A stretch of DNA of 55,228 nt, the filler included, from Sluysia triapertura (lineage: Eukaryota), in NCBI GenBank assembly GCA_046118255.1. It is 3 parts of 3 records of this genome, joined end to end, with 100 filler letters (N's around TTAATTAATTAA, not from the genome) between each part and the next. Parts side by side here need not be neighbours in the genome. Positions count along the whole stretch, not along the records: positions 19,360 to 43,552 come from JBJNIA010195155.1; 2 more parts are not named here. One strand, given 5' to 3'. Numbering within the stretch: position 1 is the first letter of the stretch; every line of letters starts with the position of its first letter. Positions 8,699-53,897 of the stretch are shown piece after piece. The notes under the pieces are model-generated. The model was not told the origin of the DNA and did not search any database. It saw nothing but the letters and a program-made list of their open reading frames with translations. The position numbers and the translations under genes were made by a program.

Positions 8699-9141
8699 CT
8701 AAATATAAAAAACATATTCTTAACATCATATTAATAAATTAAAAAAAACTATTGTTCTATATCTCAACATGTTACAAGTCAAACAATTTGAAATTGATAC
8801 TTAAATAATGGCTGAATTATAATTTCTATTTTGAATGGTCGTAATTCGAAATACAAAATTCAAATACAAAAAGTAGTGTTAAACAGTGGCAAAATAAACA
8901 TCATTAAATAAACATTTTGAATTTCACTAATTCATCATTTATATCAGAAGATAGATACATCTGCACTAAACCAGCAGTAAACCAATGTAAAAGGGAGGGG
9001 ATTCTTTTACTAGTGGTTTGTTGTGTTTTGGTATTATTTTGCTTAAAGTAATATATTACAAGCTTACACAAAAATCTATTAAAAATAATTCAAAAATATT
9101 AAAATTTAATGTATATCATAATTGAAATAAAGAAACTAACA

Positions 9142-9427
9142 TATTGGGTTGGTGCACAAATTCGTGCGGTTTTATTTGTTGAAAAGAAAACACTCAAATT
9201 TCTTGTTTTAACTGACTTGAGTTATATTCATTCAACTGAATTATCTATGTAAATCATTTTAGACTATCACTTTCATTACTCTCATTAAAATGGAGTGCCA
9301 GGAAGATAAAAATGAACATTTCCGGAATATATTTCTTTTATATTTCAATCGACATTTAAACGCTACAGAAGCCACCAGATTAACAATAACAACGTAGATT
9401 GAAGAATTTTTTGACCAAAAATCTTTA
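9142..9427 (+). mobile_element. Internally deleted mariner, 3' end missing
   Basis: TA + TIR TTGGGTTGGTGCACAAATTCGTGCGGTTTT; MECQEDKNEHFRNIFLLYF fused to ITT*IEEFFDQK. Confidence 0.85.
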
Positions 9428-10919: not shown

Positions 10920-11607
10920 CCTAAAATAAGTTGCTGTAGTTTTTTCTAACGCTTAACCTATGGCAAAATAATTTTTGACAGGGCCCGCATAGTTGGCAAT
11001 TCTGCAACTTGATAAGTTAATAACTAACTTAATTCTTTGTAAATACTATTTTAATTTAATGAATAGAACTAAAAATTCAAAAAACTTTATTTAATTTACG
11101 GAAAATTGTGATAGAAAAAAGACAAAATAGAATCATAAATTTTAAAGTTAAAACTCTTTTTGGTATTTAACTTTTGTAATGTTTAATTTTTCTGTATTCA
11201 GCCCCTCAATATATTGGAGAAACCTAATTCTTTCTTTAAAGATGTGAATTTACGTGAATTTTAATATATTAATTTTAAAAGTAATATCACCTTATAAAAA
11301 ATAACTTCATAAAAACTTCTCCAAGCAATTGCGAATACTTTGAGCAAATTAAATTCCAAATAACGAATTTTACAAATGGCGATTATCATTAAATTGATGT
11401 CAGTTTATATACTTGTCATCAGCCAATGAGAATCGATGGAATGTTCTAGAACAATCTAGAAGCTTCTATTCTATTTTTAGAAGCTAATCTTCTTTTTTCG
11501 AAAAATAATTTCTTTTTGGATAATAAGATTTTTAAATGATTTTAAATAATTATAAAATATTATTGACATTTTAAATTATTTTATAGGGTTGTGATGACAA
11601 CTTAACA
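10920..11607 (-). mobile_element. LTR-like family B; other pieces at 12230-12560(+), 43477-43552(+), 50229-50722(+), 54290-54670(+)
   Basis: Terminus TGTTA(A/G)GTTG(T/C)CATCACAACC in three copies; internal GG.CCCTG..CAAAAA..ATTTT...TAAG.G.TAGAAAAAC.ACAGCA in three copies. Confidence 0.65.
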
Positions 11608-13799
11608 TTATTCTAAATCATTTTTTATTATTTATGAAAATATTAATCATGACCGAATTAAATATTTATTATAAATTTAGATATAAATTAATCAACAGAA
11701 AATCAATAAAACGTAAAAATGTTAATTTTATTGAAAATATATAATCAATAAAACCTGTTTTTTATTCTCAAGATTAACCACTACTAAAATAACGTATTAA
11801 AAAACCTTTTGCATTTCCATATATTACTGTATGAATAATAAAAAATGGAACAAAATATCAAGCTTTCATAAGCAAATTTTGAGTAAAATATATTCTCAAG
11901 AATTATTTAAAATTATATATAGATTTTTAAACTGGCTTCTAAGGTATAATAGTGTAAAGAGTGCATATCTATAAAATTTAGTTCTGTTTAGTAATTTTCA
12001 AATTTGTTCGGGTTCCAAATAATGTGCGCATTATGAAAAACGACGTTATTCATTATGATTGTTTTTTCCGAAAAAATTTAGGATAATAAAACCCATTTAA
12101 AAACAGTTACAAAAACAACCTTTGCAGCTATTCAAATGCAATCCATTCATGGGTAATTTATATTTTTCTAAGTTCATGTTCAACTTTATATTAATTTATA
12201 TTCTAAAATATACTTATTTGTAAACTTTTTAACTTCCCAATATATTGAGGGATAATATCTACTTAAAAAATTTTAGTTATTAGATTAAGCGCTCTCGGAG
12301 TTTTAATTCATAACAAAATTATTTTTATCTTATTTCTATTATTATTAGAATTTTGTGTTTCATAAATAAAGTTATTCTTACGTTTATTTAATTATTAAAA
12401 GTTAAATAAATTTTTTTGAGAAAATATACTTTTGAGCACCTGTTAAAACCCTGACTTTATAACAGGACATAAGACGTGTACTGTAACCGGACCCTGCTCA
12501 AAAAATATTTTAGCGTAGGTTAAGTGTTAGAAAAACCACAGCAACTTCAGCTTAAATTATTCTAATATTAATAAATTGTTTTTAGTTAAGATGATATTTC
12601 GTTCTATGTAAGATCTATCAGTGTCTGCGTTTTGATATTGATGTTGAAATAGAAAATAAAACAAATTTAAATTTTTATTATTTATAATGCATTTTATTAA
12701 ACGAAAAACTGTCATAATAATAATTATAATCTCAATAACCACATAATTAATCCTAATTGATTTTGTACCAACTTAGACTTGTACAATATGGATTTATGGA
12801 TTTATACCAATGCATTTTGTGTATGTATTTAGCTATAGAAAACTCCACTTTTCACATTTATTCAGTGATATTATTTGTTACAAAAATAACCGTGCAATTA
12901 CATGACATTATGCGGGTTAATTATAAATGATTTTAATATATACATTAATTACTTTTTCCTATTGTGGTGGCTCAACTTTTTATTTAAAAATTAAGCACAT
13001 GAATAATGTAATCTCTAACAGTACAACACAATCTAAACCCAAACCATATACACAAGCATTTAAACATCTAAACAATTCAACACATAAAATCATGATAATG
13101 AAATTCTCCAAAAGTTACACCTTCAAATTATAACTAAACAATTTATTACTCTGAATCGTAAACATAACTATTTTCCTTATTTTATTAAGCAAGTAAAACT
13201 GTTATGATTCGGAAAATTATAAGATAACAACAGACAGTGTAAAGATTATTAGTCATATTTGAAATTAAAATTCGCTAAAATCGTGAAGAAGAAATCGAAA
13301 GGTTGCAGCAAAATAAGCAAGAATTTCAAAAGGAATACAAAAACGTAAAGCAAATGAAGAAAATTTAAGAAATGGAAACCTAAAACCAAGTAACTAGTTT
13401 TGTCAAATTCTTTAGAATATGAAGGAAATGTCAAAGTTTGAAGTATTATCGTAAATACGAAAATAATCATAAAATCTTTAGTAGCCTTATTTATTTGCTG
13501 AATTCCACCATTGTTACTATTCTTTAATTTTTCTTTTCTTCTTGAGTTAAATACAGTTTCTTTAAATAGAGATTTAGATTAAGAATAATTTATTTTAAAT
13601 TATGAAAGTTTTATTTTTATTATTATTATTAAATTATTTTCTCGTAATATTAATAAAGTAGAAATCAAAAATTATATATCTAAAGTCCATATTCATTCCA
13701 GATCAACTCCACTTCACATGCGACACACACACTTATGAAATAATGTAACAAGTTTTAAAACTATAATGTAGAATAACAAAATAAGTAACAAAGGTTAAA

Positions 13800-13933: not shown

Positions 13934-15127
13934 AACACGCAAATAAGAGTGATACTATATTAAGACAAAGTTACGAATCAGTCACTGTGTAATGAATCTG
14001 ATAAGGCACGGCTGACAAATTTTTATTCTTTGGTATCCTAGGGTTAATAAATAGCTGGCTGTATTACATTCTAACAGGTTGACAGTGCTAAGTACATTAA
14101 GGTAAAAGGCCGAAATTTATCAAATTAAAATTATTAAATGTTTGATAATTTGATATTTCTAATACAATATATAATATGGTTTTATTATTTTTCTTTTTAT
14201 TTGTCCAATTTATGTCTGGTAACCTTAGTTTTAAGGTTTTAGAATTAAGTCAATGTCGTTTTAAAAGAGGTTTGTATAAGAGTAATTCTTCATTGTGAGT
14301 TTTAGATTGATTGGACGATACAGAGGTGTAAAAACGAATACTTAAAAAAGTTACAACACAATCATATCATACAATGTTGAAAGGAAAATTCATGAATATG
14401 GTAAATTTTTTATTATTATTGAATACTTTTTGGGGGACATTTTTATTAAGCTAGCGTTAAATTTTACTTTACAGCTTTTCGGTTATTAAGTTAGAATAGA
14501 GTTATTCCACAAGATATAAATATTATTATTATTGTTGATTTCAATTTCTTTAGATATTGGTATTTTAATTTTTGTTGTTTGTTGAGTCACCTTTGGTTTC
14601 AGAGGATAGATTATTGTCAATTTTGAAATTTAATTATTTTCATTTAGTTTACTTGTATTATTGTTCAAGAAACTTATAATAATGACTTTATTTGATTTTG
14701 TAATTATTATATTATTGACTTATTAATTTGAATTAAGAACGTAATTTTTTGGTTGTATAAGTATCATTATTAAGAAAATTTGTGATAGGCTATACTTGAT
14801 CTAGTGAATATTGAAATTTTTTGACATTTTATTTAAATTAAATTGATGTTGGTTTATTCTTACTATTAATTTCAAAGATGGAACAATAAGAATATAAAGA
14901 TTTATCTCACCATTGAGACTTGAAAGATATCGTTAAAAGCTATCACTACGAACAATTAAAATTTCCCTCATTAACGGAAAATTTATCAGAACTATTTATT
15001 TTTAGTCAATTACTCACATCCTTATCTCCATTTTTTAAAAACGTCCATAAACTTATTCTATAATAAAGGTTAAAATTAAATTAAATTATTTATATTTTAA
15101 ATTGTTTAATTCCAATAAGACACTTAC

Positions 15128-15191
15128 TGATTTTTTCACGATTTTCTTCTTCTGGTTGTTCATTGTTCATTGTTAGAAAAATGGGATCACT
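15128..15191 (-). CDS. SLC35F5: SLC35F5-like transporter, most 5' recognisable exon (N-terminal exons not found)
   Basis: ttttag|AGT GAT CCC...ATC A|gtaagt; SDPIFLTMNNEQPEEENREKI resembles SEPLYVPV of SLC35F5; the phase-1 end fits the next exon. Confidence 0.65.
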
Positions 15192-18100
15192 CTAAAATAT
15201 TGAATAAATAAAAACTAATTCGTTAAAACCATATCAAAGAACAAGTTTTAAGGATATATAAGAATTTGGAATTTTATCTTTTTTCACAAATGAAGTATCT
15301 CAACTTTATTGGTCACTATTTTTAGAAACATAAACTGGTGAGTGCGTTTTGACCCAGTAAGAAACACTATTTAAAAAACTATTCAAAACTTCGCATGTGC
15401 ACTGAAAATAAAACAGATAAAACAAAAATCTTAATAAATCCTTTTTTCGACACATTTATTATGGAAAGCCGATTGTTTGAATTTTAAAATAATGTTTCTT
15501 TTGGAAAAGTTCCACTTATCATACACGATAACACGAGATAACACCTACAATGCACACCATGTGTAATAGTTGGACAAATAATTGGACATAAAATAACTAT
15601 GATCAAAATTCAGGTTTCATTGTATTTTATGAATTGTTTACTAGGGGTTTTTTAAACGCACGATCCAAGTGTGATCAGGTAAGTATTCTATTGAATTTTT
15701 AAAATGTTTCTAATTTGAACTCCAAAAAAGCTTGTTTTAAATGTACTAATTCATAATTTTCCTCAGTTAAGTAAATAAACAATCTAAATTAGAAAAGCTG
15801 CAACTTTTTCTTTTTTCAGAAATCATTCGGGTCCACGACAAGGTTATACAAAGGATGTGAACTCAATGTAAAATTAATTGAATTTATTATCAAAATATTT
15901 AAAAACTAATGTTTCTGTTTATTATTATAATAATTATTAATATAGCGCTAAGATCATTATTGAAATAACTATTCAAAGGCAGTTAAAATACATCATTCAT
16001 CACATTTATGAAACAGAAATAAATATTACAATACAGTGATTTGACATTCTTTAACAGCTGGTTGTATATTTTTGATAAATAAAAAAAAAGATAATCCACA
16101 TTGTTTTTATTATTTCCAAGAGATATTCAGTACTTCAATAAGATAAGCATTTATAAATACCATTTTGAATTCGAATCTTACATTTACAGATAATTTGTTT
16201 AAATCTTTAAGAATAGATGTTATGTGAAATCTCTTTTGCATGAAAAATTATTCAAAACTGACTTCATGAAATATTTCCTAATATTGCATTAATTAGACTG
16301 GTAATATTCTAGTTGGATCTAACAGTCCACCTTATTATTAATAATTATTTCTAAATTCAATAACAAAAACATTTCATTTAATTTACATATTTAAGAAAAA
16401 CAAAAGCTAAAAATCAAAAATATATTCTGCTAAAACAAAATTTATCTGCTTTTTTACACCACCTTAATCAACTTTGAACAAGTTTACGTATACCTTCGTG
16501 ATACTATAAAAGGGTTTCATACACAAAATGAGAAATGTACTAACATCGAAAATTGAGACTGCTGACCTAAATAGATAATTATCTAAAAATACAATATCTA
16601 AGCTTTTTTGAATAATTAAAAATGGGTATTTTAACATTTTTCACTTTCACTTCCAAATATATACTATTAAGATCTAATAACATCTCAACAAAAATATTGT
16701 AATTCTGAAAATTAGCACGTACTCTGCCAACCATCAGTTGTGTTTGTGTCACTCGGCAGTGTCGATCATTTTATCTTTACAAATAATATCTCGGAAAGTG
16801 CTTCAGAATCTACGAGAAATAACAAAAATAACTAATATTACAATCATTCATCAAATGTTTGAGAAATTTAATGATAACAAGTCTTCAAAATGATGATTTA
16901 AAGGAGTTAGTGGCATCGGATCCTTGCCAAAGGTCAAGTTGATATTTTACAGGTATTAAATATAACGGTATTTTTGAAGTATCAAGTTATAGGAAAACAA
17001 AAGAACTACATAAATAGATAACCCATCAACAGTGTGATTTACATAAACATAAGAATTTTGTTATTCTCCGCCAAATAATAAGAGTAGGATCCGTTTTTAA
17101 TTTGTATTGTAACCTGTAATGAAAAGCATGTTACGTACGAAAATAATTGTCGTTCATCTCAGTGTATTCCAAAGTTGAATAACATCTAGTAATTTACAGC
17201 TGTTATTAAAATTTGCAACTTTCCATATCCTGATGGATCTATAAATTCTTAAAGGTACAAAAATAAGAATTCCTTTTCGAAGCACTCATTATTTTACATA
17301 TAAAACATTAGATCATTCTCCAAGTTCTCCCCATTTGATAAACTTGGTGAGTATACGTGCATACATGCATGTATCTGAGTAGAATATTTAAGTATGAATA
17401 CAGATGAAAAAATGAATTATTATTGATAAAACGAAATTGTATTATTATTGATTACTAAAAAATTATTGAAATTAATTTTAATGTTGAAATGAATTCGAGT
17501 AGACTAAAAATAAAAAATTACTTTTTGAATAGACACCTGTAATTAAATTATTGACAAAGGAAAAACATTAAAAGTTAGATATAAATTTTTAAGACAATAA
17601 CTTCTAAGATCAATCATCGTACGTACATTGAATAAAGTTTTAATCGCGTTTACGTTAAAAAATAAATTAGTAAAGATATTGGTTCCAACTAAATGGATCT
17701 CAAACTGTTTATGTTTGCTGAACGTGACATTCAGTAGACTCCATTCTAAGCTAACCCAATCTTCTCAAATATAAAAAATACCCCTTGTAAATTTCAAACA
17801 TAATATTTTCACTTGTCTAAGAAAAGTATAACATTTTAGTTAAAATCACCTTGTAAAAATCAGATTTAATTTAATATTATTATTTATAAAAATATTAATT
17901 TAGATTGGAGTTTTTTTGTTCATATTGTTTAGAAAAAGGGAAAAATTCAATACAAATTAATTAAACAAAGTTAGTCCCTACTTAAAGTATGAAGACACAA
18001 ATTTAATTATTGACACTTGACACAAATTATTTATTATTATGGGAAGACACGAAATATTTATTGAATTTTGAACGTGGCACACAAATAATTGTTATTATTG

Positions 18101-19259
18101 AATATCAAATATGTAATTATGCATATAATTTATTGATTTTAAACCTTAATTTATTACAAATTATTTGTGTACTTTTAATTTAATTTTGGACATTTAACTT
18201 TTAATTTATTTTATTTTGGATATCTAATTATTTTGAATTCATATACAAATGTAAGTAATTATTTGTTAAATTTATTTTTAATTTATCAACTTTAATTAGT
18301 GTATTAATTTTATTTTGTTTTAATTATTTTATTTTTTTATTATTATTTTTTTAAAATTTTATCAATACCGATTTATTGTGGATCAAGACTTTGGAAAATC
18401 TTTTTTTCGTTTTTCTTTAAGTTTAGGTACAATTAAGTACTTTTGTAAAATCGATAATATAAAACATTTTAGAACCATTTAAGGGTTCAATGCAAAATCT
18501 TTAATTAATATTTTTTATTGAAGATTAACCTAATTACTCTTAATTGAGTAAAATTGTATAAAAAAGAAAAAGAGCTTAACCTTGATCATTATTTTCAAGA
18601 ATTTTGTATTATAAAATAAAATTGTACGTTTTATATATATATATATATATATATATGTTCAACTTTATTTTATTAATTATGAGTTTTAAAATTTATTAAA
18701 ATCATTGTAACTGTTTTCACAAAAGCCGGTTTTTATCATCGGTATGCGTAATTTTAATTTAAAACGCGTTGTCTCGACTTTCATATAAATACAATTAAAT
18801 TACGCATAAATAAACTACTAAATTAAATTTCTTTCAATAAAAATTAAAATTTAAGTAATATATTTTTACACAATAATTGTCAATGTGTTAAACTTAAAAA
18901 AATTACTGTTCGCAACACACTATTCTGTCGATATTCAAATTCATGTCAGTAATGATGAAGAATTGTGAAAGAAATACTAAGTAAAAGCAATATAAATCAT
19001 TTACACATACCACATCGCGTCATTAAGACGTAAGTGGCTATTCGTTTCTTTGTTTTGAAAGATACATAATTTAATTAATTATAATGAATTAATTTTATTT
19101 AGTCTAAATAATAATAACCCAATACTAATACTGCATTTTTCAAAATATTTTAAGCACTTTTAGATGATTCACAATGTTTACAAGCATTTTAATGTTCATA
19201 TTACATATATTTTTTTACAATATATGCTAAACTAAAAAACATCTAACCAAAGAATGTGT

Positions 19260-19360
19260 NNNNNNNNNNNNNNNNNNNNNNNNNNNNNNNNNNNNNNNNN
19301 NNNTTAATTAATTAANNNNNNNNNNNNNNNNNNNNNNNNNNNNNNNNNNNNNNNNNNNNT
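19260..19360. other. Artificial join: N44-TTAATTAATTAA-N45
   Basis: Six-frame-stop linker centred in Ns. Confidence 0.95.
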
Positions 19361-21846
19361 CAACTTTTATAATTAAATTCAAATTGTTTTTAATCTCCAC
19401 TGTCTCAAGCGCTACATTCTGCGGTATAGCATTAGGTCCAACTCTGCAATCACATCCTAAAAAATTTATAAGATAATAATAACACTTAGAGTAAGTAAAA
19501 AAATTTTACAGTATGTTTATTCTGGAAAAATTTCATCCTTGTAAAGTCGTGCACCATTTTGATGATTTGAAACTCGAAACTACATGAAACGGATCTCATT
19601 TTTGCGTACACTTTCTATAATTACAATCTAAATCAGGATCTTGATTGATAAATTTTGGACTTGTGATGATATTGACGACATAAGTGCATAAGCTCGAGTT
19701 GTATTTTGTGATCTGATTAAGCTCTTGATTCGTTCCTGTTTCAAACGAAGCTCGTAATATATGTTGATGACCACTTTTGTTACAATAATAACGAATCATA
19801 CACATATGAATCATTGCTACAAAATTGTTGAAATTATTAATGTCTGCAAATGCAAACATGACATTGGCCAAAGGAGTCGCAATTTTACTCATGATAAATA
19901 AACCATAGATAAAATTACTAAATGTTATGAAGTACTTCATACTATTTTCCAGAGAATTAAGCTTATCAAAATTAGCCGCGATTGATTTTATTCTTAAAGC
20001 ATATGATTAGTTTTAATGTCCACATTTTTAATTACACATAATGTAGGGTTCTAAAAATTTCCTCGTGCGTCTTTCAATAACGTAGCGTTCGGGTCTACAT
20101 TTTCACCTTTGTGGCTTATGACTTTGATATATTCAATAAATTGTTTAATTTGAACAAACGTTTTGTTAACTTGTATTATACGCATCTTAATAACTTGTGT
20201 TGGACTACGCAATCTATCTAGACATAGTACAGGAACATTTGTATCTCCTCGTTTTTATTCATTTGATATACGTTTTCTCAAATTAATATTTTGATTATTT
20301 GAAGGTTCCTTTTGAAGAATAAGATCCACATAATATAAAGCATTTTTGTAATCCTTTAACTTGAGTAAAACTTATAATCCCTGATTTCAATTTTATCCGA
20401 AGCTTTATTCGTTAAATCATCAAACAATTTTATAGCCAAATTTAAGCATTATTTATTTTTCGATCGACAGAGTATGAACACATAAAAATTACGTATCTTT
20501 ATCCACACAACCTGACTGTTTTTCTTTAGCATATTTATTTCTAACACTCATAATTTCTTGATTTTTTAAAATTTTGTTTTTTGTTGGTCATCCAATCAGG
20601 GCTTTAAAAAGAGACTAATGAGTAAAATCTGTCCTGATTGGATGATGGCCAGAAAATTATAACTGACATACAACGTGTGATTGCTAATGATTAACCATCA
20701 TCAATATTGAAGATTTTGACGAGCAGTGTCAATACTAATGATGGCAGCAACTCATTCAACTATTTTGGATTATAAAAATTTTATAATAATTAATTTAATA
20801 ATTGGTAATAATAACGATAATATTATTATTATTAACAAACATAAATAAAGAACTTTTACACGATCTTGTCTTCTTTATATCTTTATTTCTTCTGACATAT
20901 AAATTGAACGGAATAAGGACGATAACGGAGTACACTATGCTCGAATTATCGTCGTTATTTCGTTGTGTGACATTGAATTCTCTAAAACTGTAGTAATTTT
21001 CTTAAACTTCTTGAAGGATTTAAACATGTTGGAATGAATTTAAAATGTATTTTGGAATAAACTTCTGAGTAGTAATTGTTTCGAAAGAATTGATAGGCAT
21101 AATTCACCTGTGAAGATATAATAAATTATATGAGTCAAAAATGAAATAGAGAATGATAGAATAAGTTCTTAAATATTGATTGAAGTTTAAGATTGAAAAT
21201 AAGGTTTAAGTATTGAAATATCGTGGATAAAAAGGTTTATTGAAAAGATTGTAATTTAATGAATCTAAAAATGATTGCAATACAACTCATTGTATATTTA
21301 AGGTGTTATTATACTATGTTTTGCGTAATTAATTTGATGTTTTGGTGTTGTAGTTTTATGTTAATGAAGATTATGCATAGATGAATAGTGCGTTTGAAAC
21401 GTTGTAATTGATTCGAAGGTGTGAAATGGGTATTTTATGTGTTTCAAGTAGATTTATTGGTGTTGCGGAATGGTGTTAACTGTAATTGTGGTTTATATGT
21501 TGTAAGTTTAAACAAATGAACTATTGAATAAATATTATTAAATATTAAGTATTAATTGTTATAGTGTACTGTAAAATAAAGGGTTCGAAAGAATTGAATA
21601 GATTATTTCGAATTTGTTTGTTATTGGGTAACCGTGAAAGTCGCGTACATGTTTTTGGTGGGTTGGTTAATGTAAATTGGTAATGTTGGGTGTAACTGTG
21701 ATTTAGATGTTGTGGATTTGTGAATATAAATTGATTTTAAAGAGCATGTAATAGATGGATGTATAACTGTTGAGATGTAATGAAAAGAGAAGGAAAAGAT
21801 GCTGGTTTTTAATAAATTTTAGTGGTTGTCAAGGTTGGCCACTACA
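19361..21846 (-). mobile_element. Family A element with Fis1-derived cargo, cut off by an assembly gap
   Basis: Terminus TGTAGTGGCCAACC at 21846; same base skew, AAGATCGTGT motif and hairpin module as 23032-25804. Confidence 0.75.
20291..20551 (-). pseudogene. FIS1: Captured, decayed Fis1 (mitochondrial fission 1) TPR domain
   Basis: Over two frameshifts and two stops: RNKYAKEKQSGCVDKDT*FLCVHTL / RSKNK*CLNLAIKLFDDLTNKASDKIEIRDYKFY / KLKDYKNALYYVDLILQKEPSNNQ, colinear with Fis1 EKAAGSVSKSTQF...RSK...QRDYVFY...RLKEYEKALKYVRGLLQTEPQNNQ. Confidence 0.85.
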
Positions 21847-23031
21847 TAAGAACGTGTAAAATAAAATAAGATTAAAACAATAAAAAAGCGCTAATACGAG
21901 AAAATCATTTTTCACAAAACATCCTTTTTTAGTAATACCGAGCGAGCCTGTTTTTATCAATGCTGTCACTGCACAGAAATTCCAAATTACTCATATTATA
22001 ATAGTTATGTTAAACATCAAATATATTTTTGATTTATATACATTTATATTTTATTATTATTTAATAAAAGTTTCCTTTTCTTTTATATAAAACATTTCTT
22101 GTATCTGTATTGACTGATTACTTTGTATAAAAATTACAATTAACCAATCAAAACAATTTCAATTAATATTAAATGATATAATTTCATAATATCCTCTTTG
22201 GAAATAAGAGAAAGTTGAATTATAAAAATAATTATAAAAATGAATTTAAATAATTTTAAATCAAGATTTGGTTTAATCCAGAATTTGTATTTAAAGAAGC
22301 ACAAGTAAAATCATCAGTGAATCACTTAGTAAGACCAAATTTCTAATTAAGGAGTTTCTAATATTTTGGAGAAAATATTAGATTCTTCATAACAAATTTG
22401 ATTTTAATAAATTTGAAAGAATTAATACTAAAAATTATTAAATGTATAGATTTTATGTAAAATTTTATAAAATATTATATTATATAATATTATTATGTAA
22501 TATAACGATACCATCCAACTGAAACCATTAAACAAACAAATCAATAAAAGCGACTGAGAACAATTAGTAAACATAATCCACCAAATGAACGAAAATTTAC
22601 ACAAATACGTTCGGATTTCAAGCAACCTTCTCTGGAAAGTAATAAACTACCAGATAAAATCAACATTACACTAAAAACAAGTCAATCAACTCCCAACAAT
22701 ACAGGTACCGACCACAATAAATCAATTATAAACCCTGTAGTATCGATAGAAGGTACTTTATCGCATTTACAAGGTCATAAAGCAAGACCCTTAAGAACAC
22801 CGCATACTACTCTCCAAACAACCACCACGTCGAAACAACTCATCAGACATAATGAAACACACACACACCTCATTTAGACAAACCTTCACAAACGAAATGA
22901 AGACATCCAACTCAAATACATTCAACATATAACACTTTACCACCTATACCACCAATAAACTATCACACTCATATACAACTCGCAAATCCTTTTTAACAAA
23001 ATCAAACACATACAATAAAGTAGTAGGGTAC

Positions 23032-25804
23032 TGTGGTGGCCAACCCATTACTTTTAACAGATTTTATTACAAATTTTATTCTAAACATTTCAAGATCACA
23101 AACTTTCAAAATGTACAATATATATTTTAAAATTCATTAAGAAACATTTTTTACATAATCCCATGTCAACATAATCAAAACCATATGTTTCGATATCAAA
23201 CTCACTCTCAAAATCTACAGCTCACATTCCTAAATTCAAGCTTAATACTAACATAACTAAAGTCATATCCTTTTCAACATCACATAACCTTTTAGAAATC
23301 GTCAAAACCGTTTCTATATTTTATCTTTTTTCAGATCCATTAAAATCAATTTCCATTTATCAAAATAATTTAAATCCACTTTCTTATAAAATTCAAACCA
23401 CAATGATATTCAAAATCATTAATTTACATTAAAAAGTTCATCTTAAATATTTTATTAATCATTTCATAACAATCCAATTACAACCACATTCGAAATTAAC
23501 TACCAGACATCTTCAAATCAATTAAAACATTCTGACTTCATGATCTGTTATCATTTAATCCCTAACATTACAGAAAGACAATATTACTTAAAATTATCAA
23601 ATTATCAATAAGTCAAATTTTCAACATTATACAAGCATCTTTTCAACTTACCAAAACATAACCTACGATCTATCTTATTCACATCCACTAAACTATTCTT
23701 TTTCAACATATGCATAATTCACAGTCGTTTAATATCCAAACATTACCTTCGTTCAAAACACCAATGGACATTTATCATCCATTTTTAACATTTATATTAT
23801 TTCAAAATACTTAAGTGTAGACCCAAATACATCTTCAGTAAGAAATATTAAGTAGCATTTAAAAATTCACTTAAAATTAGTAAACAGCATTTAAAATTAT
23901 ATTAAAACGTTTTACGCTTTGTCTTATTAGAATCACACTACACAATAAAATTTCATTGTAAACACGTAACAATAGTTTGTAACACCATATGTTCATGAAA
24001 TCTTAACATTCAACCTCAGACAATTAACTTCTGTAAACTAAGAAATTGATTTTTAAATATGTTAAGAAATACTATCAAATTAAGAAAAGAAAGATCATGT
24101 TCTTTAAGTTTAAAAGATGTATGTAATTTATATTAAGATAATAATAACATTAAAATTATTATTATTATTTTTATAAAAATTATTTGGTAGCTGTCATCAT
24201 CAATAGTGATACTTTTAGTTCACATGTTTGGTTTAATGTCACTATTGATGATGGTTGTGACGACAGTTAATTATATTTAAATTCTGTCGAATAACAATTG
24301 ATTGGATACCCAATCACCTCGAGTGGCTAATCAAAAAATGCAATTTAAAAATGATTTTATGGATTTTATAAGATGTGTTAAATACGACAAAATGAGATTA
24401 TAAATGAATAACAAATATAAACATAATATTCATTCGCTTTTAGAAGCTAATATGGCGTTATGAACAAATGAGTTTAATATATTGTCTTTAGAAAGTAAAA
24501 AAATTGATCGAAGATATTGCAATAATCAAATATATTTTGGATGATTTACTTAATTCATTTAATTGTATCCGAGAAGATTTTCAATTCAAATGGCTAAAAT
24601 CAATAAAACTAGTAATGATAGTAGTCGTAAACGATGTAAATGCTTACGTATTAATATTTTGGAACAAAACCATCAAATTGTCATTTATAATGTTTGTTTG
24701 CAGTTTCTTTATCTTAGGCTCGATATTATTCACCAAAATTTAGAAGTGATTACTCGGCTGGACAGCAATGAATATATACTCATTATAAATAGACGTCAAG
24801 TTCGTGATTTCAAAACTATCATTACAAGTGTTAGTGACAAAACTAGACTATGCATTAACAACCATATAGAAATATTATCTCAATGTCATTTGATTTCAGA
24901 AATAAAAAGATCAAAAGAAAATACCTTTTACGAATTTATTATCCGAATTTCTACTGAATTAATCAAAATTAGTAAAGATAAATTTCCAATGAAAAAAGAT
25001 ATGACGATTTGTACTAACGAGAATGATCTAAATCAGAATTTTAAGCTCACGCCAATAGTTGTTAATATAATCTGATTAGTTAGAACCATATAAAAGAAAG
25101 TTAATGGTCATTGTGCAAGTTGAAGGAAATCATATATTACATATAAAATTAACTAGATGTTGGAATCACAACGTTAGAAATGACGAAAAATCTCAAGTCA
25201 TATGTTCCTTAATAAAAAAATTAACAAGTTCAAAACATTAATTCGAACGCAGCGACCATTCAATACAGAATCGCCAATGTCAATTGAAGAATATTCGATC
25301 AAATGTCATCTGCTGATCCATTCTATATTTCGATGACACTAGACAACAACTACTTATGAGTACAGACTCTGGCTTGATCAACTCTTGTTCAATCGAAATG
25401 ATTTATCTAATGTTGTTCTCTTTGGTGGTTCGAGACAGAATGGTTTTCAAGAACTTCTTTAAAGTAATTTTTAATTGTAATAACACTTATAACATATCTT
25501 TAACATTTACTTCTTTTTTTAGAGTGTTACAAAAACGAAATTCGAAACGTTTGGCGAAATCATTATTAAAAAAGAATTTTCAAAAATAAACATTAAATGT
25601 CTTGTTATTAGTAATAAAATGGTTGTTAATTTGGTCGTTTGCTTTGTTAATAATTATTTAAAGTTAAAGAATTTTCGATTTTCCAACAAACAGGTTGTAA
25701 TGAAGTAAATAAAAATGAAAGTTGTATAAGTTCTGATAGTGATAACTTAAAAATAAATCCTTTTTAATATTAATAAAACCTGTTAATATCCGATTACCAC
25801 AACA
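23032..25804 (+). mobile_element. Complete 2773-bp solo-LTR-like element (family A) with an internal decayed cargo gene
   Basis: Termini TGTGGTGG...CCACAACA (7/8 inverted match); GGTAC duplicated at 23027-23031 and 25805-25809. Confidence 0.8.
24470..25708 (+). pseudogene. Decayed cargo gene of the complete family A element, with a 59-nt intron at 25464-25522
   Basis: Same-strand ORF pieces at 24504, 24563 and 25356; a phase-0 splice joins ORF 25356 to a 61-codon frame ending TAA at 25708, followed by AATAAA. Confidence 0.55.
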
Positions 25805-26479: not shown

Positions 26480-27245
26480 ACGTTCCCCATAAAAATATTA
26501 GGCAATATCATAAAGCATGAACACGTATGGCTTTCCCATCAATCTAAAGCCCTGTGCGAACAACTCACAGCATATTCGACGGGGCTGTAATCCGACGTCG
26601 ACGGCGAGATCCCCATAACCCAACAGAAATCTCAGAAGGCAATTATCTTCGACATGCCCTTCTTCACAGATGAATCCGGACATGGTTCCTTGTCGTTGAA
26701 TCCCATTTTAAAATGACAAAGCACCATGTTTATCCAACTACTTCCTCTCCTACCGCAACTTCTCCTAAGTAAGCAATGTAGCCTGATACAAACTTGCCTA
26801 CAGTCGGAAAATGATTACGATGACCTGAAACAAACAATCTTGGCACATTACCGTCCCAAAACAGAAAAGGTATTCCAATATTATTTCAAAGCGCAATCTA
26901 TAGGGACTTTATCCCCTTCTGAATTCTTAGCCAAGATCAGGAACGATCTTGAGCCATTCGGTTGAGAAAAGGATGAGAACCATGGACGCCATGCCCACAG
27001 AAGTCCAGGCTGCCTTCACCGGGAGCTAAATAGATAATATCAAAGAACTGGCCAATGGCGTACAAGGCGTTCAGACACTATAAACGCTATTCAAGACACG
27101 TCACATTCAAAGTCAGGCATCACCTTGGAATCAGTATCAATGCGGATTTATGCCCTGACTGTACAAGTGGCAGAAATTACCAAATTGGTAGCCGCCGGTC
27201 TTACACAATATCCGAATAAACCCCCTGCAATACGCCAATCCTCAT
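26480..27245 (+). mobile_element. Decayed Ty3/Gypsy gag
   Basis: PFF..WFLVVESHF...LLP...YDDLKQTIL...IGTLSPSEFLAKIR follows the Gypsy gag pattern PFW..WF..VE..F...Y..LK..L...LG..PS..L; higher GC than flanks. Confidence 0.7.
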
Positions 27246-27433
27246 TGTGGTGACCAACCTTATAGCTTTAATAAAACATACCAAAATCTCACAAATGTAC
27301 AAAAATAAAATTTTACTTCTAAAAACACCTTAAGTCTATAAATTCATGACAAAGAATATTACCAACTCATAGCAAGAACTCCATCAATAATACTTACCCA
27401 AAACCTCACAACATCCAAATCACAATAATGCTG
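27246..27433 (+). mobile_element. Family A terminus fragment that truncates the Gypsy gag
   Basis: TGTGGTGACCAACC followed by C/A-rich sequence. Confidence 0.6.
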
Positions 27434-27660
27434 TGTTGAGGACGAAAAATTGTTTAATTTAAATAAATTTTATTTTTTTAAAAGTGTTTAACAATAAAAT
27501 TACAAATGTCAATCAAAAGCAAATTATTTAATTTTAATTTTGAAATTACAAAAGAAATAGGCTTAAGGCCTGTAACCATTAACAAATTTAAAATGATAAC
27601 AAAATATGTTTTAAAATCGAAATATAACAAATAAAGAAACAATATAAATAAAATTATTGA

Positions 27661-28309
27661 TTATCGTCGCGGTGCTGCAATTGACATTCCCCCTTTTATT
27701 TTTATACGAACAATTTTCTTAATAAGTTTTTCTGATAAAATGTCCTTATCTACGAAATTATTCATATAAACTAGTTTTGTACATTTTATCAAATATCCTC
27801 TTATTACACATTCGTATCGGTGAATAAAAGATTGAAAAAATATTAAATCCCCTTCCCTTACTGCTTGAAAAATATCGAAAGGGTTATCAACAATTAATTT
27901 TTCAACAAATACTAAAGGCATATTTAATTTTTTCGTAATATCGTCTATATTTACACACCACTTTTCTTTAAGCACATAGGTTATTTGTAATGATATCAAT
28001 CTGAGATAAGAGTCAATTAAAATATTATTTATTAATCGTAAATTATTGTCATGAAATAACATATTACTAACACATGATTCAATAGTCTTTAAATCAACTT
28101 CTACATTATTATATAACGCGATTAATGAAACTTTATGGTTTTGGAGTTCTAATTCTTCATAAATTTCTTCATAACTTTAACTTGTTACTAGATATCAAAA
28201 AACTCATTATATCAATGCAATTCCTTTCGCTTTATTTATCAATTGATGAAACTTCATGTGTTCTCTTAAAATCAGAGGCTAATACCTTAATTTCATTCCA
28301 AGTTGTCAT
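27661..28309 (-). pseudogene. UFL1: Captured, intronless, decayed N-terminal domain of E3 UFM1 ligase 1
   Basis: MTTWNEIKVLASDFKR...K*SERNCIDIMSFLI matches WEEIRRLAADFQR...RLSERNCIEIVNKLI; after a frameshifting deletion EEIYEEL...VDLKTIE...LIDSYL...IFFQSFIHRYECVIRG stays colinear with UFL1. Confidence 0.85.
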
Positions 28310-28450
28310 TTAACAAATAACCAAAAGCAACGTTTAGAAATTTTAATCAATATCATAATAATTATTCATCATTATCTGAGCAATAAATTTATACTAACAA
28401 CAGTTTTATACTAATTACAGTATTAAGTAAATAATTATCTTATATAATTA

Positions 28451-29400
28451 TTACTGCTTATCGACTAGTTTAGTTGTTACTATTTTCTCATGTGTCTCTA
28501 GTTCCAAACTACGACGTCCATTGGTTGTAAGTGGCTGCTGAGATGCATAAGAATTGTACATACCACAACTAACTGAATCAGTACGTGACAGATTATCTAC
28601 TGATATTATCGTTCTTTGGTTAGTACCAGGCATATTAAGACCTGATGATTTGAAAATGCAGCTTCAAACTCATAAACTTGACCCATCAAATCATCGACTT
28701 TACTAAATGCATTTTGTTTCAATCTTCGTTCTTCGTTCAGCTGCTTTTTAATGGGTTTACTTCCATAGTGGATTTGTCGGTAACGGTTTTGCGTGTTTTA
28801 TATTGTCTGAAAGAACTTTAGTCATATTGACAATTCTGCTGTTCTTTTCTGTAATTTCTGACACTAATTGTTCAATATGTATTTGTTTCACCAAAGCTAA
28901 TTGTTGTTCTGTTGCTGCTTTTCTTTCAGAAGCATGTTTCTTTTCATTTTCTCTTTCATTTCTTTGTCAAAAGTTTTCCGAAAATCATTCAATTCTTTAT
29001 CAGTTAAATAATGTTTCATAAGTTGTCATTCTTCGACCAATAATTGTACTTTTGATCTGATTTCATTTGTATAAACGTTACATTTTTTTATATAGATCAC
29101 GTTCAGAACAAATATCACCTAATGCTTTTTGAAAATTGCATTTCAAGTATGTGTGATGACAATTAAAGATTGATTTCATAGGACTCATCCTTTGACGAAT
29201 GTGAATATTTTCTTGTTGAAGTGATGTCAAACTTTTCGATAACTTCAAATTACTTTTTGTTTTGTGTGTATTTGGATTGGTTTTGGTATTTTCATGTTTA
29301 TTAGGTGATTTCAAAACACGATCTTTATCGTATTCTGCAAAAAATTTATTGTTACACAGTGATGGATCGAGATCAAATATATTGTATAGTATTATAAAAA
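28451..29400 (-). pseudogene. Frameshifted coiled-coil coding fragment of probable host origin
   Basis: Glu/Lys/Gln-rich helical pieces in alternating frames, e.g. KKQLNEERRLKQNAFSKVDDLMGQVYEFE. Confidence 0.45.
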
Positions 29401-30769
29401 ATTGAAGGAAACAGAAAAAAATAGAAAGGCAGATTGTTAATAAAAGAAATAATAATAATGATAACAATAACGTGATTATTATGTTTATTAATACTAAAAT
29501 GTTGATGTTGAAATTATAAAATTTATTATGAAAATTATTGTAAAAGTTATTATAAAAGTTATTACTTGATAATCATACTATATAACAATAATGACTATAA
29601 TTATTATATATATTTTAATACGATCTGAATTTTAATAATAATAGTGGTAGTTCATGATAATTAGGTACGATGATCATGTTTGTTTTTTGAATGAGTTTAT
29701 TAGTTTGTTTAATAGTCTGTGTATATGTGAAGTGTTTTATGTGATGAAATGTGATGAATTTTGTGTGATTTCCCTACACAAGTAAAGAACAAATAAGCTT
29801 AAAGAAAATTTGATAACCGTTAAACAGTTAACCGTTATAATTGTAAAGTAAAAATACTGACCCTAGTTAATTACATTGCTGAAAGATTTAGGATATACTT
29901 TCGTAGCATTTTATTTTCTTGTGAGTACGTCTTTCTCGTAATATAAATCGTATTGCACAGGCGGACCCGTGTAATTTAATAGTTTTATAATTGTTTCAGA
30001 CTTAGAAAAAGTTGAACATTAATAATTCAATTAACAATAATTAATAGTTGGATATAACTACATACGTATAGACATTCAAATTAAATAATAAGTAGTAATA
30101 TTAATTTTTTGTGAAGTATTCAAATATTAACATTACAAATATATAGAAGTTTTTCTGTTGGACTTGGTGAATATATAAGATGTAAATTAAACCATAAATA
30201 ATAAGAAAATAAAAAATGACTAATGATTATTTTGTATATATTGAATAATCTTTCCAATTTTCTTAAAAATTATATTCTCTCATTCAGATTACAAGATGCA
30301 ACTTCCAAGCGCAAAGATAATAAATTACATAAATCCTTCTTACAATGGCATTGACCGTTCCTGTGGTAATAATGCCACTCCCCTTGCACTTCTTAATTCA
30401 AAATCCATTCCAAATTACCTTAAATGCGAAATAAATAATCATTTCATCTCGCATTTATTTGACATAAATCAACTGCAACCGCCATTAGTATTCAACGTTT
30501 TAAAGGGTTATCTATTAGACAAAGGCGTTGTAGTAATAGCTGCTGCAAGAGGAACAGTTGCATACTAGATTGCAAGGATTCACATCACTATACATTAAGA
30601 ATCTAACCAGCAATTGCAAAATTCAAATAGTAGTGGAGAAATTATCCATTATATGTGCCATTGTTTTAGAAAAACACGACAAGTCACTCAATTTAGCTCT
30701 ATTTCCTTTATTATATGAGAATGACATGGGTAATATCTATAAGTGGCTAAAACCAAGCATTGCCTAACA

Positions 30770-37550: not shown

Positions 37551-39148
37551 TTTGCATTTTTTAAGAAAAAATTAATAAAACAACAAAAATTAAGAACAAT
37601 GGTTGCTAACTTGATTTATAAAGACAATAAGTCAAATTTAATCCATGTAATTTTTAATAAAATAAACCACGTTATAAAGATAATGAAAATCACTTTAAAC
37701 CATAAACTCCTAAAGTAACTATAATAATAATAATAACTAGTATAAATTATAATTTCAGATTGAGTTGGTGTTTTTTGAGATGATAGAAGATCACATAAGT
37801 GAGATTATTGAAATGTGATATTGAAATTACATGATATAATATAAAAATTTTGTTAAAAATCTTTATGAAGGAAATATCACTGTCGGTTTTATTAAACTTT
37901 ATAAAGAAAACGATTAACCGGATCTAAATTGAACAATTTGAAAAATCAATCAATTCTCTTTTGAACGTCAATTCTTCAAATTCGCTCTTTTCTTATTAGG
38001 AATTAATGACACATGAATAAATAAGCTCATTTCTATTAAGATAAGCATTGATAATTTTGCTTCAAAATCCAGGTAAAATCATCGTTATTTAAAAAATCCA
38101 AGCATTGTATACAATTTATATTTATATATTGTAAACAATTAATAGTTTTTATCAAACATTTGTGTATAAAGAATATATCACTTTGATTTTTAATCTTCTT
38201 TTGTTAACAGAATAAAAGCTAAAGGTCAAAGAACGACGAGATAAGTTCAAGTTAAATTATAAAGAGGTAAACACAAACTATCATTAAAGTAATTTTAAAT
38301 TTAATTTTATTAAGTGTTTTTTGAGTTTTTTAATTTAACGTGCAAGTTAAACTCGTTAATTGCAGCAAGAAGTTAAGGACACTTTACTTAGTTTTTGACA
38401 ATTGACATCTTGTGAGTACGTTTTCCTTGAGATATAAAACGTGCATCACAAGCGAGCCCGAATAAGTTTTATAATTGTTCCAGTAATAGGATAAAATCTG
38501 AACATCTCGATTTACAAGTTAACAAGTCAGTATTGATTGAACATTTATGTGTTTTAAGTTTAAATTTTAAAATTTAATAAAATTAAAATAAAATATCTTA
38601 CTAAAAGTTTTGTAAAAGAATTTATTTGCAATTGCATACTAATAACATAGTTCTTGTGTGTTATAAATAAAGTGTCCTTGGATTTTTCAAGTTATTAACG
38701 TGCGGATAAAGAGGCGAGTACTGAATTAAGCCTCTATAATATATCACCTTTAAGTACTAAAGAGTAACAAAGAAAAATTTAGTTTTAAGTTAATAAAAGT
38801 TTAAGGTTTTAACTAATTTAAGTTAAAAAGGAAAAGAAGCACAACACAAACCAAAATAAAATAAAGATTAAATTTATTATTTAATAATAAAACTTTAAAA
38901 TATTTATTTATAATACCAATGATTCAATATCAGCATAAAAGTAAGTCTCTCTATATATAATTCCAAAAAAGAAAAGACTTGGTGTGAAATATGATTTAAT
39001 AATTACTTTAACATTATTGTTCTCGTTAACTATAGAAAAGGACAAAGAAATCATTACTAATTATTTTTAAACTTGCAGGAAATGCATTTGACTTTCAAGA
39101 TTTTATGAAAGGCTAAATGGCCGAAAAATGTTACGAAACGGTTAAATA

Positions 39149-39650
39149 TAATGGGTTTGGTGCATAAATTGGTGCGGTTTTTACAATTATGAAAAATGCA
39201 AACTGATCAAGAATAAAAACCATGCAAAAAATTCCAAATAACAAAATGAATTTATTAAATCATTAGAAAAAACAAATATCTGTCTATATCGGTGAGATAT
39301 TCTCCGTCACAATCGATCACTTCCTTCTGGCAGATTGTCAATCCCACGTTTGAAGAAACTTGGTGATTTTTGGTGGAAAAATTTTTCAATCCACGTTGTT
39401 ATTGCTTCTTCGTTTTCAAACGCAGCGTTTAAATGTTGATTAAAATAGAAAAGGAGCAGATCCCTTAAATGTTCATTTTTATCTACCTGACAATCCATTT
39501 TAATGATGGTAATTAAAGTGAAAGTTAGTCTAAAATGATTTAAATAGATAATTCAGCTGAATAAATATAACTCAAATCACGTAAAACAAGAAGTTGGTGT
39601 GTTTTCTTTGCAACAAATAAAACCGCACGAATTTATGCACCAACCTAATA
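39149..39650 (-). mobile_element. Non-autonomous mariner (about 500 bp) with both TIRs and flanking TA
   Basis: TIRs near 39151-39182 and 39619-39648; ORF 39307-39498 fuses the transposase N- and C-termini. Confidence 0.9.
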
Positions 39651-39733
39651 TCATTTCAAACGATTAAAAACGTCTTCAATAATGCATGTGAATTAGCACA
39701 TTTAAGAACTCATTATTAAGTAAAATCACTAAC

Positions 39734-43267: not shown

Positions 43268-43552
43268 CTAAATTTGAAAAAATTACTAAATACTCAGCAT
43301 TTATTACAAATGTTAATCAAGCAAGCTTACAGAACCTCAAGTATTAGTTATTGGTAACGAATGTCGTTTTTCATATTAATTGCTTGAGCTTGCTTTTCGA
43401 TTTATATCATAAAGATAGTAAACAATTAGTTCATAAATCACATTTTTCCGATTTTCCCAATTAGAAGTTTCATAATGTTAGGTTGCCATCACAACCCTAC
43501 AAAATAATTTTAAGATGACATAATAATGCCTTAAAATTATTTAAAACTATTT

Positions 43553-43652
43553 NNNNNNNNNNNNNNNNNNNNNNNNNNNNNNNNNNNNNNNNNNNNTTAA
43601 TTAATTAANNNNNNNNNNNNNNNNNNNNNNNNNNNNNNNNNNNNNNNNNNNN
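43553..43652. other. Artificial join: N44-TTAATTAATTAA-N44
   Basis: Same linker, 100 nt in total. Confidence 0.95.
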
Positions 43653-50071: not shown

Positions 50072-51877
50072 ATTTAAAAATGGAATAGAATTAAAAAGAC
50101 TATTTAACAGTAAAGCGCACAAATATTACTAAAGTAAACATTAAAAGTAAATTTATTCGCTATTTAGAATAAATAATTCTATAATGACTTTTTAAATAAA
50201 TAATAATTCTATATAAAAACAATATACGTGTTAGGTTGTCATCACAACCTTCTAAAATCATTTAAAATGTCATAACACTTTGGAATCATTTAAAATATTT
50301 TAAATTCATTTAAAAATTTATTTTCGAAAAAAGAAAATTCGCTTCTAAAAATATAATAGAAGCTTCTAGAATGTTCTATGTGACTAGTATATTGAAAATC
50401 GCCATTTGTAAATTTCCATTTTGTAAATATAACTGCCATTTTTCATTTTGCTGCATTGCTATTTTGGAGTTTTTTGGAATTTCTGGTGAATTATCGTAAC
50501 ACATTCTGTGATTTGGCAACATTCATCGAACAACAATTATTCGTTTCTACCTTCAAATTCCATGCCTTAGTAAATTTTATATTATTAAGATGAATTTCAG
50601 TTTTCGAAGTTTAAATTGTGAAGTCCTTAAAGTATCTAAAATTTAAAATAAAATTCAAAATGGACTTAAGGTTCTTGTAAAACTTAAAATTAGACATTGT
50701 AATAAATTTTCAAAAGGTTACAGTTACGATTATTACGAAAATAATTAAAATCAACAATTTCGCATGTATAAAAAATAAAACATAAGACACAAAAGTCCTT
50801 GTATTTGTCTGATAATATCAAAACAGTAGACTATTATTTTAACACTAAGATCAATTTTGATTAATCCAACGCTGAGACTAACTGCAAGACGAAAATCGTC
50901 ACGATATGAAATTTCTAAATGCATAGTTTCCGAATCCGACGCACATTTTTCAAAAGGAAATCTTTCTGAAGTTTTAATAGTTTTATCTTCCAAGTGTTGC
51001 GTTTTTTAACCTTACAGAATAAAGCAAATTAATAAGTGAGTTCATCAACGTTAGGGCTAGCCGTTGGGTTTAATATAAGGCAAATTTTCTTAGTGAGTTT
51101 TCTTAATAAGTTTCTTAACTTTTATGAAGTTTCTTATTAATTCTTAAAAAATAATTTAATAAGATTTTGCTTTGGTTCGTGAAAAGAACAGATAATTTGG
51201 TGATTTTACTTTGGTTCTTAAACTGAACCAAAAAAACTGTACAAAATTTTTAAGAGTAATGATTTCACGCTGGTTCATAAATTGAACCGAAAAACTATAC
51301 AAACTTTAAGTGTAAATAAAAATACTAATACTTCAAAATAATTTATATTAAAATACAAGTAGATTATTAATAAGATATTAGTTGGATTATCTTTATTTTG
51401 ATAATCTCCTGAATTTAAGTTTAAAAATTTATTTTACTAAGTTAACTTTAAATGTTAACGTGAATGTTTTAAAGAAGATTTTACCTGGATTATTGATAAT
51501 GTAGTTTCTGGGATGTTAATTTTAATGATATTATAATTCGATTAGAAGTTAGAATTAATTCTCTTATTAGCTTTATTCGAAAATATCTTAGGTATTTATT
51601 GAAATCTTAGTTTATTTTAAATTTTATTGTAGCTAACAAAATTACTGACACTTTTGCATTATAATTAACAAGTAAATAAGTATAGACATTGAGAAATTTA
51701 TTAAAGTTTTCAAAATACAGATTGTTAATGTTTAAATATTTCGTCTGTGTATGCCTTGAGATTTGCTCCATTTTCCGTTACCTGAAGACAAATTATAATT
51801 ATAATTATTATTATTCGAATAAAAGATAGTTATTGCTTTATCAAGTTTTGTTAATATCTCTTTTTGAGTATTTCCAG

Positions 51878-52815: not shown

Positions 52816-53897
52816 GATAATTTGTTAACTGCTTATCACTTAAGCGTAACAAGAAGTGAGAGACAAAAATTTTCTATTACTAGTTATTGAATTGTGGTTT
52901 CGATTAATATTTGTCTTCCTCACTAATAAATTCTCTGTATCTCGATTGGTTTTCCAACAAAAATCGTTTGAAGAAAATGAGTATAATAACTGTTTTGGTT
53001 GGACAGCCAGTAAGGTTAGTTAGTTAATTAATAAAAATCAATGATTGATATCAATTGTAATGGCAACCATCAACAACATCGACACAAAATGCCACTGTTG
53101 ATGATGAAAGTAACTCGGTTGATTTTGAGCTGCATAATTAAAATTTTTAAATTATCTAAATTATATTAAAAATGATAATAATAATAATAACAATGTGTTA
53201 TTATTACTATTACTTCAATAAAAATCCATAAATCTCTTGAAAAAGAATCTTTACATAATCTTTCTTTCTTTCTTTTTCTTTCTCAACATATTAAAGTTAA
53301 AATTAATAAAGAACAAATCTTTGAAACTTAATATTTTGAAATATAATGAATGTTTTGTGTAACTGTTAGGATATAACTTACTATTCTTGAATTAATAATG
53401 TTTCAACTAAAGGTGTATTAGGGTGTAGATGGTTGCAAAGACTTTTAGATGTTTAATATTTTTAAGTGGGAGTAAGAGATAAATATGGGAATATTGAAAT
53501 GTTTAAGATGATTTGAAACTGTATAATGATTGGTTCTGATATTTTGACTGAAATAATGTTCTTGGCTGGAATGTTATTAAGGTATAGATACTTCTAAACT
53601 AAATACTTGGAATAATGTAGACGTTAAAGTAAGTGGTGATTGTCTTTGGCTATTAAGATTAAATAGTACCAGATGTAGATTAATGGTGTTTACTTTATTT
53701 TGGAAGGATTTGTTGATTGATTATGAATGTGGATGTGATTGAATTGTTTGAGATGAAAGGATGTAAAGTAAAATATTTTGAATAAATCTTTAATGTACTT
53801 TAATGGTTTAAGACATTATTGTGATTTGGATGTTGTGAGGTGTTGAGTAAGTATTCTCAATGAATCGTTTACTGTGAATTGACGATGTTATTTGTTA

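Follow-up and report, generated by a model that had tools for sequence, protein, structure and literature searches.

A broken, probably dead copy of the UFL1 5' coding part, one of many diverged copies, in a repeat-rich patch of Sluysia triapertura

Background

UFL1 belongs to the ligase that attaches UFM1 to ER-bound ribosomes. The first part of a UFL1-like coding sequence lies among repeats in a 55,228-nt stretch of Sluysia triapertura DNA (GenBank assembly GCA_046118255.1; the whole stretch is referred to as the window), and it raises the question of whether a mobile element carries a working fragment of this ligase here, or a copy that has decayed. The initial annotation suggested an element-borne mini-ligase or dominant negative, and described the UFL1 N-terminus as the region that works with UFC1 and DDRGK1. 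The latter description agrees with the available part of PMC9627666, in which N-terminal pieces of human UFL1 form a minimal ligase with DDRGK1/UFBP1, and in which human pWH-WH1 with UFBP1 activates UFC1 while WH2-WH4 are needed for ribosome tagging. According to the accessible text of PMC10702826, UFC1 contacts W5, I8, L11 and F15 of human UFL1, and the human helix on its own binds UFC1 at 1.4 uM. The half winged helix of human UFL1 (27-58) must pair with DDRGK1 (boundaries as given in the available parts of PMC10702826 and PMC9627666).

Identity and origin of the UFL1 piece

The piece lies on the minus strand with its Met at 28309, and it matches Pfam PF09743 in a profile search of translated segments, the search that had been proposed as a check on its identity. 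Two segments (72.6 and 28.1 bits) clear the curated cut-off of 23.2 bits for this family (Table 1). When the breaks are read through as X, the translation is colinear with human UFL1 4-227 (E 9e-16) with one gap of 16 residues that corresponds to human 48-63. A separate UFL1 profile, for which 47 of the 54 relatives recovered among 1.84 billion representatives were used, shows both blocks, and the rest of the window holds no other significant UFL1 piece. No intron was found within the aligned part (about 610 nt). The description of about 200 codons colinear with UFL1 from its Met, without introns and with one stop and a frameshifting deletion, is thus confirmed throughout the aligned part.

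The frame is lost after codon 46, and the second frame, 27664-28176, continues with PF09743 58-213 of 272. Residues W4, I7, L10 and F14 of the piece correspond to the four UFC1-contact residues of human UFL1, and all four are kept, as is L45 in the alignment to human UFL1. The premature stop directly follows the UFC1-binding helix, and a transcript of 28232-28309 (-) would give a 25-residue peptide with the four contact residues; this placing is likely due to chance.

The closest of the 54 relatives is a 773-residue protein with 33% identity. The tree that the initial annotation had called for was made as a quick tree of 41 rows. It includes 40 of the 54 relatives, namely those no shorter than 330 residues with the exception of P0155. 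The window copy is sister to the 773-residue protein (SH-aLRT 94), and lies inside a clade with UFL1 of Macrostomum, Cichlidogyrus and Schistosoma (SH-aLRT 96). This grouping with flatworm UFL1 argues for an origin in the host lineage; judged from sequence, the DNA likely comes from a flatworm, and the piece derives from the host's own gene rather than a foreign one. Word searches for UFL1 relatives gave none among 802 and 1256 candidates, and relatives were absent from 23 stretches in viral contigs and 207 in metagenome contigs.

Table 1 Features of the UFL1 piece and its surroundings
Feature	Position	Strand	Evidence
Broken Fis1 TPR piece	20249..20487	-	PF14853 13-50, E 2.3e-9; weak Fis1 matches in second frame, E 0.4; bin depths 397 and 2061
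Piece of another repeat	27302..27430		75% alike to 53814-53942, inverted
60 open codons past second TAA, same frame	27481..27660	-	Chance of staying open 0.8-1.6% (shuffles); common to other copies to at least 27618
Second TAA, the 'own stop' of the initial annotation	27661..27663	-	Other letter at depth 250.5/250.5, 2 contigs; stop absent from other copies covered
UFL1 winged-helix part, human 65-227	27697..28170	-	PF09743 58-213 of 272, E 5.6e-20; own profile 63-221, E 1e-32; human UFL1, E 2e-8
81-nt (27-codon) unit, repeated head-to-tail in other copies	27730..27810	-	Joint at depth 126 and depth bulge; in frame if no letters between
120-nt (40-codon) unit, repeated head-to-tail in frame in other copies; 117-nt form too	28018..28137	-	Joint rows at depth 137 and 17, loose ends, depth bulge, frame arithmetic
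Junction of 47-nt frameshifting deletion	28168..28174	-	16 model positions gone (human 48-63), 1 base left
UFL1 codons 1-46: UFC1-binding helix and first part of half winged helix	28172..28309	-	PF09743 1-41, E 2.1e-6, 28.1 bits; human UFL1 alignment; own profile 1-46
Premature TAA, codon 26 (human L27)	28232..28234	-	Sense codon in most other copies: other letter at depth 927/1007, 14 contigs
TM9SF1 host gene	32.4-33.4 kb		Pfam; unbroken coding stretch >700 nt
INTS4 C-terminus, host gene	34.2-34.5 kb		Pfam

Other copies of the piece

All evidence on copies comes from the contigs (60-235 nt) of one public run, X1. Seven of the eight listed long pieces show only 0-2 differences between X1 and the window, and this near-identity indicates that X1 is from the same organism and may be from the same sample. 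Across 27560-28460, 328 contigs align, of which 32, 58, 113 and 125 are 99% or more, 95-99%, 90-95% and under 90% alike (238 are under 95%), and up to 25 contigs deviate from the window at single sites. With two bulges set aside, the UFL1 coding part has a summed depth of 390-1700, whereas the listed long unique pieces have 12.5-25; summed contig depth is not a copy number but a rough guide, and is read only as tens of copies. Single contigs over the piece reach about ten times the unique depth (126-151). The piece is therefore multi-copy, with roughly tens of copies. A single copy, which had been named as an outcome that would speak against the earlier reading, is contradicted by the contigs and depth of run X1, and the multi-copy state argues against a single retrocopy.

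Over about 50 nt upstream of the Met the depth drops from 1668 to 157, and on the 3' side it carries on past the second stop to at least 27618. The upstream fall would mark a shared 5' edge, but it also fits a conserved coding family with diverged flanks.

At the deletion junction the per-site depth drops to 126 at 28172, against about 1050 and 1300 on either side, and one X1 contig carries extra letters there; the 47-nt deletion is likely missing from most other copies. Other copies also have 3 extra bases at 28007, where the profile gives the window copy a one-residue gap. No stop is made by the majority letters shown for the other copies. Some copies contain head-to-tail repeats of two units (Table 1). 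A 30-nt loose end fits 28108-28137 at 22 of 30 positions, but another AT-rich place ties with it, so that it supports the 120-nt repeat only in combination with the joint row.

Decay of this copy

There is no open frame from the Met through WH1, owing to the TAA at codon 26 and the frameshift, and the half winged helix that pairs with DDRGK1 (human 27-58) is not intact, since human 48-63 is deleted. The product of this copy would be a peptide of 25 residues at most. Forty of the 95 differences from other copies were shown, and 32 of the 40 lie in the coding part. They fall evenly on the codon positions (11/11/10) and 7 of the 32 are synonymous, where 24% is expected (p=0.68); when the two repeated zones are set aside, 5 of 19 are synonymous (p=0.51). 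Neither set thus gives a sign of purifying selection on this copy. An omega of 0.2 is rejected on both sets (p=0.002 or lower), and an omega of 0.5 on the larger set only (p=0.18 for the 19 sites). This test applies to the present copy as distinct from the whole family of UFL1 fragments. A dN/dS near 1, the other adverse outcome that had been named, fits this copy, whose differences look neutral. Given its early stop, its incomplete half winged helix for DDRGK1 binding and its neutral-looking differences, this copy does not bear out the proposed mini-ligase or dominant negative, and is likely dead.

Firm UFL1 homology stops at 27697, about 60 Pfam positions short of the end of the family (213 of 272), and both contigs that cover the supposed own stop just after the domain read a sense codon. 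With this TAA absent from both contigs, the clean truncation on which the mini-ligase was based falls away, and the codon is most simply a second nonsense change. The 60 open codons beyond it are possibly degraded further UFL1 sequence. Their in-frame colinear fit to UFL1 profiles is borderline, with scores reached by 12, 5 and 22 of 150 shuffles in global tests; of four homologues compared singly, one outscored all 20 of its 20 shuffles, 26 homologues averaged 23.2 against 23.9, and local tests for UFL1 likeness of this tail were negative. A second frameshift near 27690, with UFL1 going on in the third frame, was considered and rejected: it gave no PDB match, the anchored extension scored 1.8 bits against up to 2.4 for shuffles, and its local profile score was matched by 25 of 60 shuffles. 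The UFL1-bearing stretch of this copy likely ends beside another repeat at about 27430. Just before this junction, at 27433-27494 (-), a GT...CAG stretch of about 62 nt has, by eye, the look of a short intron.

The surrounding repeats

The window has 26% GC and contains host genes with short introns. Gaps at 19260-19359 and 43553-43652 are filled with a spacer that has stops in all frames, and the sequences that flank them may not be contiguous in the genome. Bin depths near the UFL1 piece reach 14,000-23,000 at 20.8-21.8 kb and 8,000 at 23.2-23.6 kb, and with such very high values the patch is read as a repeat nest. The Fis1 capture that had been reported within 8 kb was recovered as a broken piece about 7.2 kb away. 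It runs over two frames with no evident intron, has no recognised membrane anchor, and is multi-copy by depth. The initial annotation grouped the two pieces as organelle-stress genes, a theme that would have just these two genes behind it.

The initial annotation spoke of a mobile-element nest. High-depth repeats do surround the piece, but no transposase, reverse-transcriptase, integrase, gag or RepHel family reached the Pfam threshold in the segments scanned, which were 91 and 122 segments (the greater part of the 288 stop-to-stop segments that reach 45 residues) and 26 and 9 further pieces. The term nest therefore stands on repeat depth, and its mobile-element part does not stand on proteins. 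A MOV-10 helical match at 25184-25333 was under the Pfam cut-off. Searches elsewhere for a carrier gave weak matches only in PHROGs, no PDB match for three open reading frames of the nest, none of 7 viral contigs and no Rfam match.

Several other features were observed in and around the nest. The stretch 26640-27250 (+) is GC-richer, has a bin depth of 1300-1800 and no Pfam match, and looks like the beginning of a Ty3/gypsy gag with a frameshift. Unassigned open stretches of 107-170 codons at 19599-20006 (-), 24563-25072 (+) and 30245-30565 (+), with depths of 93-650 and no match at cut-off in Pfam, PHROGs or PDB, may be further cargo. Strand-skewed repeats, G/T-rich on one strand and partly alike, occur at 20985-21820, 22500-23800, 27302-27430 and 53700-54140; some are very deep, and one has a 113-nt tandem unit at 53898-54139. 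A 100-nt motif is found twice, at 29917-30019 and 38408-38505, the two being 71% alike. It contains a TATA-like box and a short, GC-rich core that resembles a hairpin, has no Rfam match, and could be an element end or a small-RNA promoter. Two more dispersed repeat families lie at 9141-9423 and 39365-39651, and at 11447-11611, 43472-43552 and 50229-50378.

How the piece may have spread

Helitron ends have a 5' TC and a 3' hairpin with CTRR, and insertion occurs between A and T. A hairpin-plus-end scan revealed no convincing end of this type near the piece. No RepHel coding sequence was found in the window, and a non-autonomous copy need not have one. A Pack-type element would carry its cargo between terminal inverted repeats and a TSD; no flanking pair of such repeats appeared among the 25 longest of 1662 inverted pairs or in self-comparisons. 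The poly(A)/TSD signature that would also have counted against the earlier reading was not seen around the piece: there is no poly(A), the longest A-run is 7, and the target-site candidates are only AT-rich 8-10-mers, none of them convincing.

Probably, the piece derives from the 5' coding part of the host UFL1 as a broken copy that is likely dead, and it belongs to a set of many diverged copies, for whose spread a non-autonomous mobile element is the likely vehicle. The 5' end of the host gene would have been copied at the DNA level into such an element, and amplification in trans would have given tens of copies, at a time distant enough to allow 5-20% divergence. In this copy both stops and the deletion would have arisen later, and its 3' side would have been lost beside the other repeat. 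Within this reading, Helitron-type capture is the first choice with roughly even chances. It fits the 5' bias, the lack of poly(A) or a clear TSD, and the presence of Fis1 as a second multi-copy gene piece, although the class is a guess since no termini were found. Bat Helitrons favour gene 5' ends, according to section 13 of PMC4224331.

It is also conceivable, though unlikely, that the family codes for protein even if this copy does not, and consists of short UFL1 derivatives with in-frame 27- and 40-codon winged-helix repeats, which bind UFC1 and DDRGK1 without the ribosome-binding part and serve as element-encoded decoys or retargeted UFM1 ligases. All three tandem joints in the other copies are multiples of three (81, 120 and 117 nt); since two of them are probably one event and the 81-nt joint may conceal letters, such frame-keeping would arise by chance with a probability of about 1/27 to 1/9. 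Apart from the edge of the deletion, the rows shown for the coding part (one indel row lies beyond them) contain no frameshifting indel at a share of 10% or more, and the upstream flank has -1, -2 and -2 in one contig, but 5 extra letters occur in the tail of one contig at about 30% of depth. At 15 of 24 sites the UFL1 profile favours the majority letters over those of the window (mean +0.56 bit, Wilcoxon p=0.09), yet they are worse than those of the window at the conserved columns 28209, 28043 and 28118. The frame stays open for 60 codons beyond the TAA, but an open ancestral frame is expected from simple capture too. An intact member would be a plausible decoy, since in human UFL1 the N-terminal half-helix plus WH1, together with UFBP1, are enough for UFC1 activation and ribosome tagging needs WH2-WH4 (available part of PMC9627666). 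However, neither the 1.84 billion representatives (best 33%) nor the word searches held a close relative, and no contig (60-235 nt) represents an intact copy. That this very copy works, either as a mini-ligase whose breaks are assembly errors or as a 25-residue UFC1-binding peptide, is hardly credible. The four contact residues are kept, the isolated human helix binds UFC1 as noted above (PMC10702826, in the accessible text), and the window's own letters are absent from the X1 contigs at several sites. Against this, there are two stops, two deletions and a neutral substitution pattern, 2 of the 6 listed differences in codons 1-25 are synonymous, and neighbouring unique pieces agree with X1 without differences.

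Ectopic recombination or segmental duplication at repeat-rich sites, which would make the patch a gene-fragment hub rather than the cargo of one element, seems improbable. Two unrelated gene pieces, UFL1 and Fis1, do lie amid several repeat types of very different depth, the hairpin-plus-end scan recovered no element ends, and the route is known from Drosophila 'tinkering loci' (10.64898/2026.08.09.743762, in the portion available). Bursts of transposition would better account for tens of copies that share a 5' boundary close to the Met, and for contigs with some ten times the unique depth. A processed, retroposed UFL1 copy, possibly amplified later inside another element, is very unlikely. 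The piece is intronless over about 610 nt and the shared part starts near the start codon, but the adjacent TM9SF1 gene has an unbroken coding stretch of more than 700 nt, so that intron absence says little. The usual LINE retrocopy has the opposite shape to this 5'-complete, 3'-truncated piece, in which the 3' part of the gene is absent, the longest A-run is 7 and a convincing TSD is lacking. Retrogenes amplified inside Helitrons are described in bats (section 16 of PMC4224331). The piece may also be cargo of a planarian Burro-like element, although linked gag, RT or integrase was not found by Pfam in the segments scanned.

Captured and amplified gene fragments are a known kind. The literature search, with most subscription papers and supplements outside its scope, returned, among the matches listed, no earlier report of UFL1 capture, of amplified UFL1 copies or pseudogenes, or of gene capture by flatworm Helitrons. 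The locus adds another case of a host-gene 5' end that was copied many times and then decayed, and annotation or RNAi of UFL1 in this organism would face tens of look-alike pieces. If selection does lie behind the frame-keeping repeats, a mobile element would be interfering with UFMylation, and its copies would be natural UFL1 truncations with which to test which parts bind UFC1 and DDRGK1.

Comparison with known systems

The piece resembles eukaryotic UFL1 (PF09743; human chains in PDB 8ohd, 8qfc and 8c0d) in its colinearity from the Met to human 227, in the kept UFC1 contacts and L45, and in its grouping with flatworm UFL1. It differs in the stop at codon 26, the deletion of human 48-63 with its frameshift, and the second stop; it also has no recognisable later winged helices or C-terminal region, is multi-copy, and shows a neutral pattern.

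Among mobile elements, the non-autonomous, gene-fragment-carrying Helibat Helitrons of bats (PMC4224331, available sections) are similar in that a housekeeping gene has contributed its 5' end, this has been amplified to many copies, poly(A) and a clear TSD are lacking, and a second captured gene piece lies nearby. They differ in that the termini, hairpin and RepHel were not found at the UFL1 piece, where the class is inferred only. Burro elements are giant gypsy-like elements of planarians that carry ubiquitination and apoptosis domains, according to the available part of PMC6431247. The likeness consists of what is likely the same phylum and a cargo from a ubiquitin-like pathway, and a possible gag remnant lies near the UFL1 piece; unlike Burro, the locus has no gag, RT or integrase match and no polyprotein, and the gag-like remnant is on the other strand with a different GC content. 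The Drosophila tinkering loci (accessible part of 10.64898/2026.08.09.743762) likewise hold unrelated gene fragments in a repeat-rich patch between ordinary host genes, whereas here one fragment, UFL1, is present in tens of copies.
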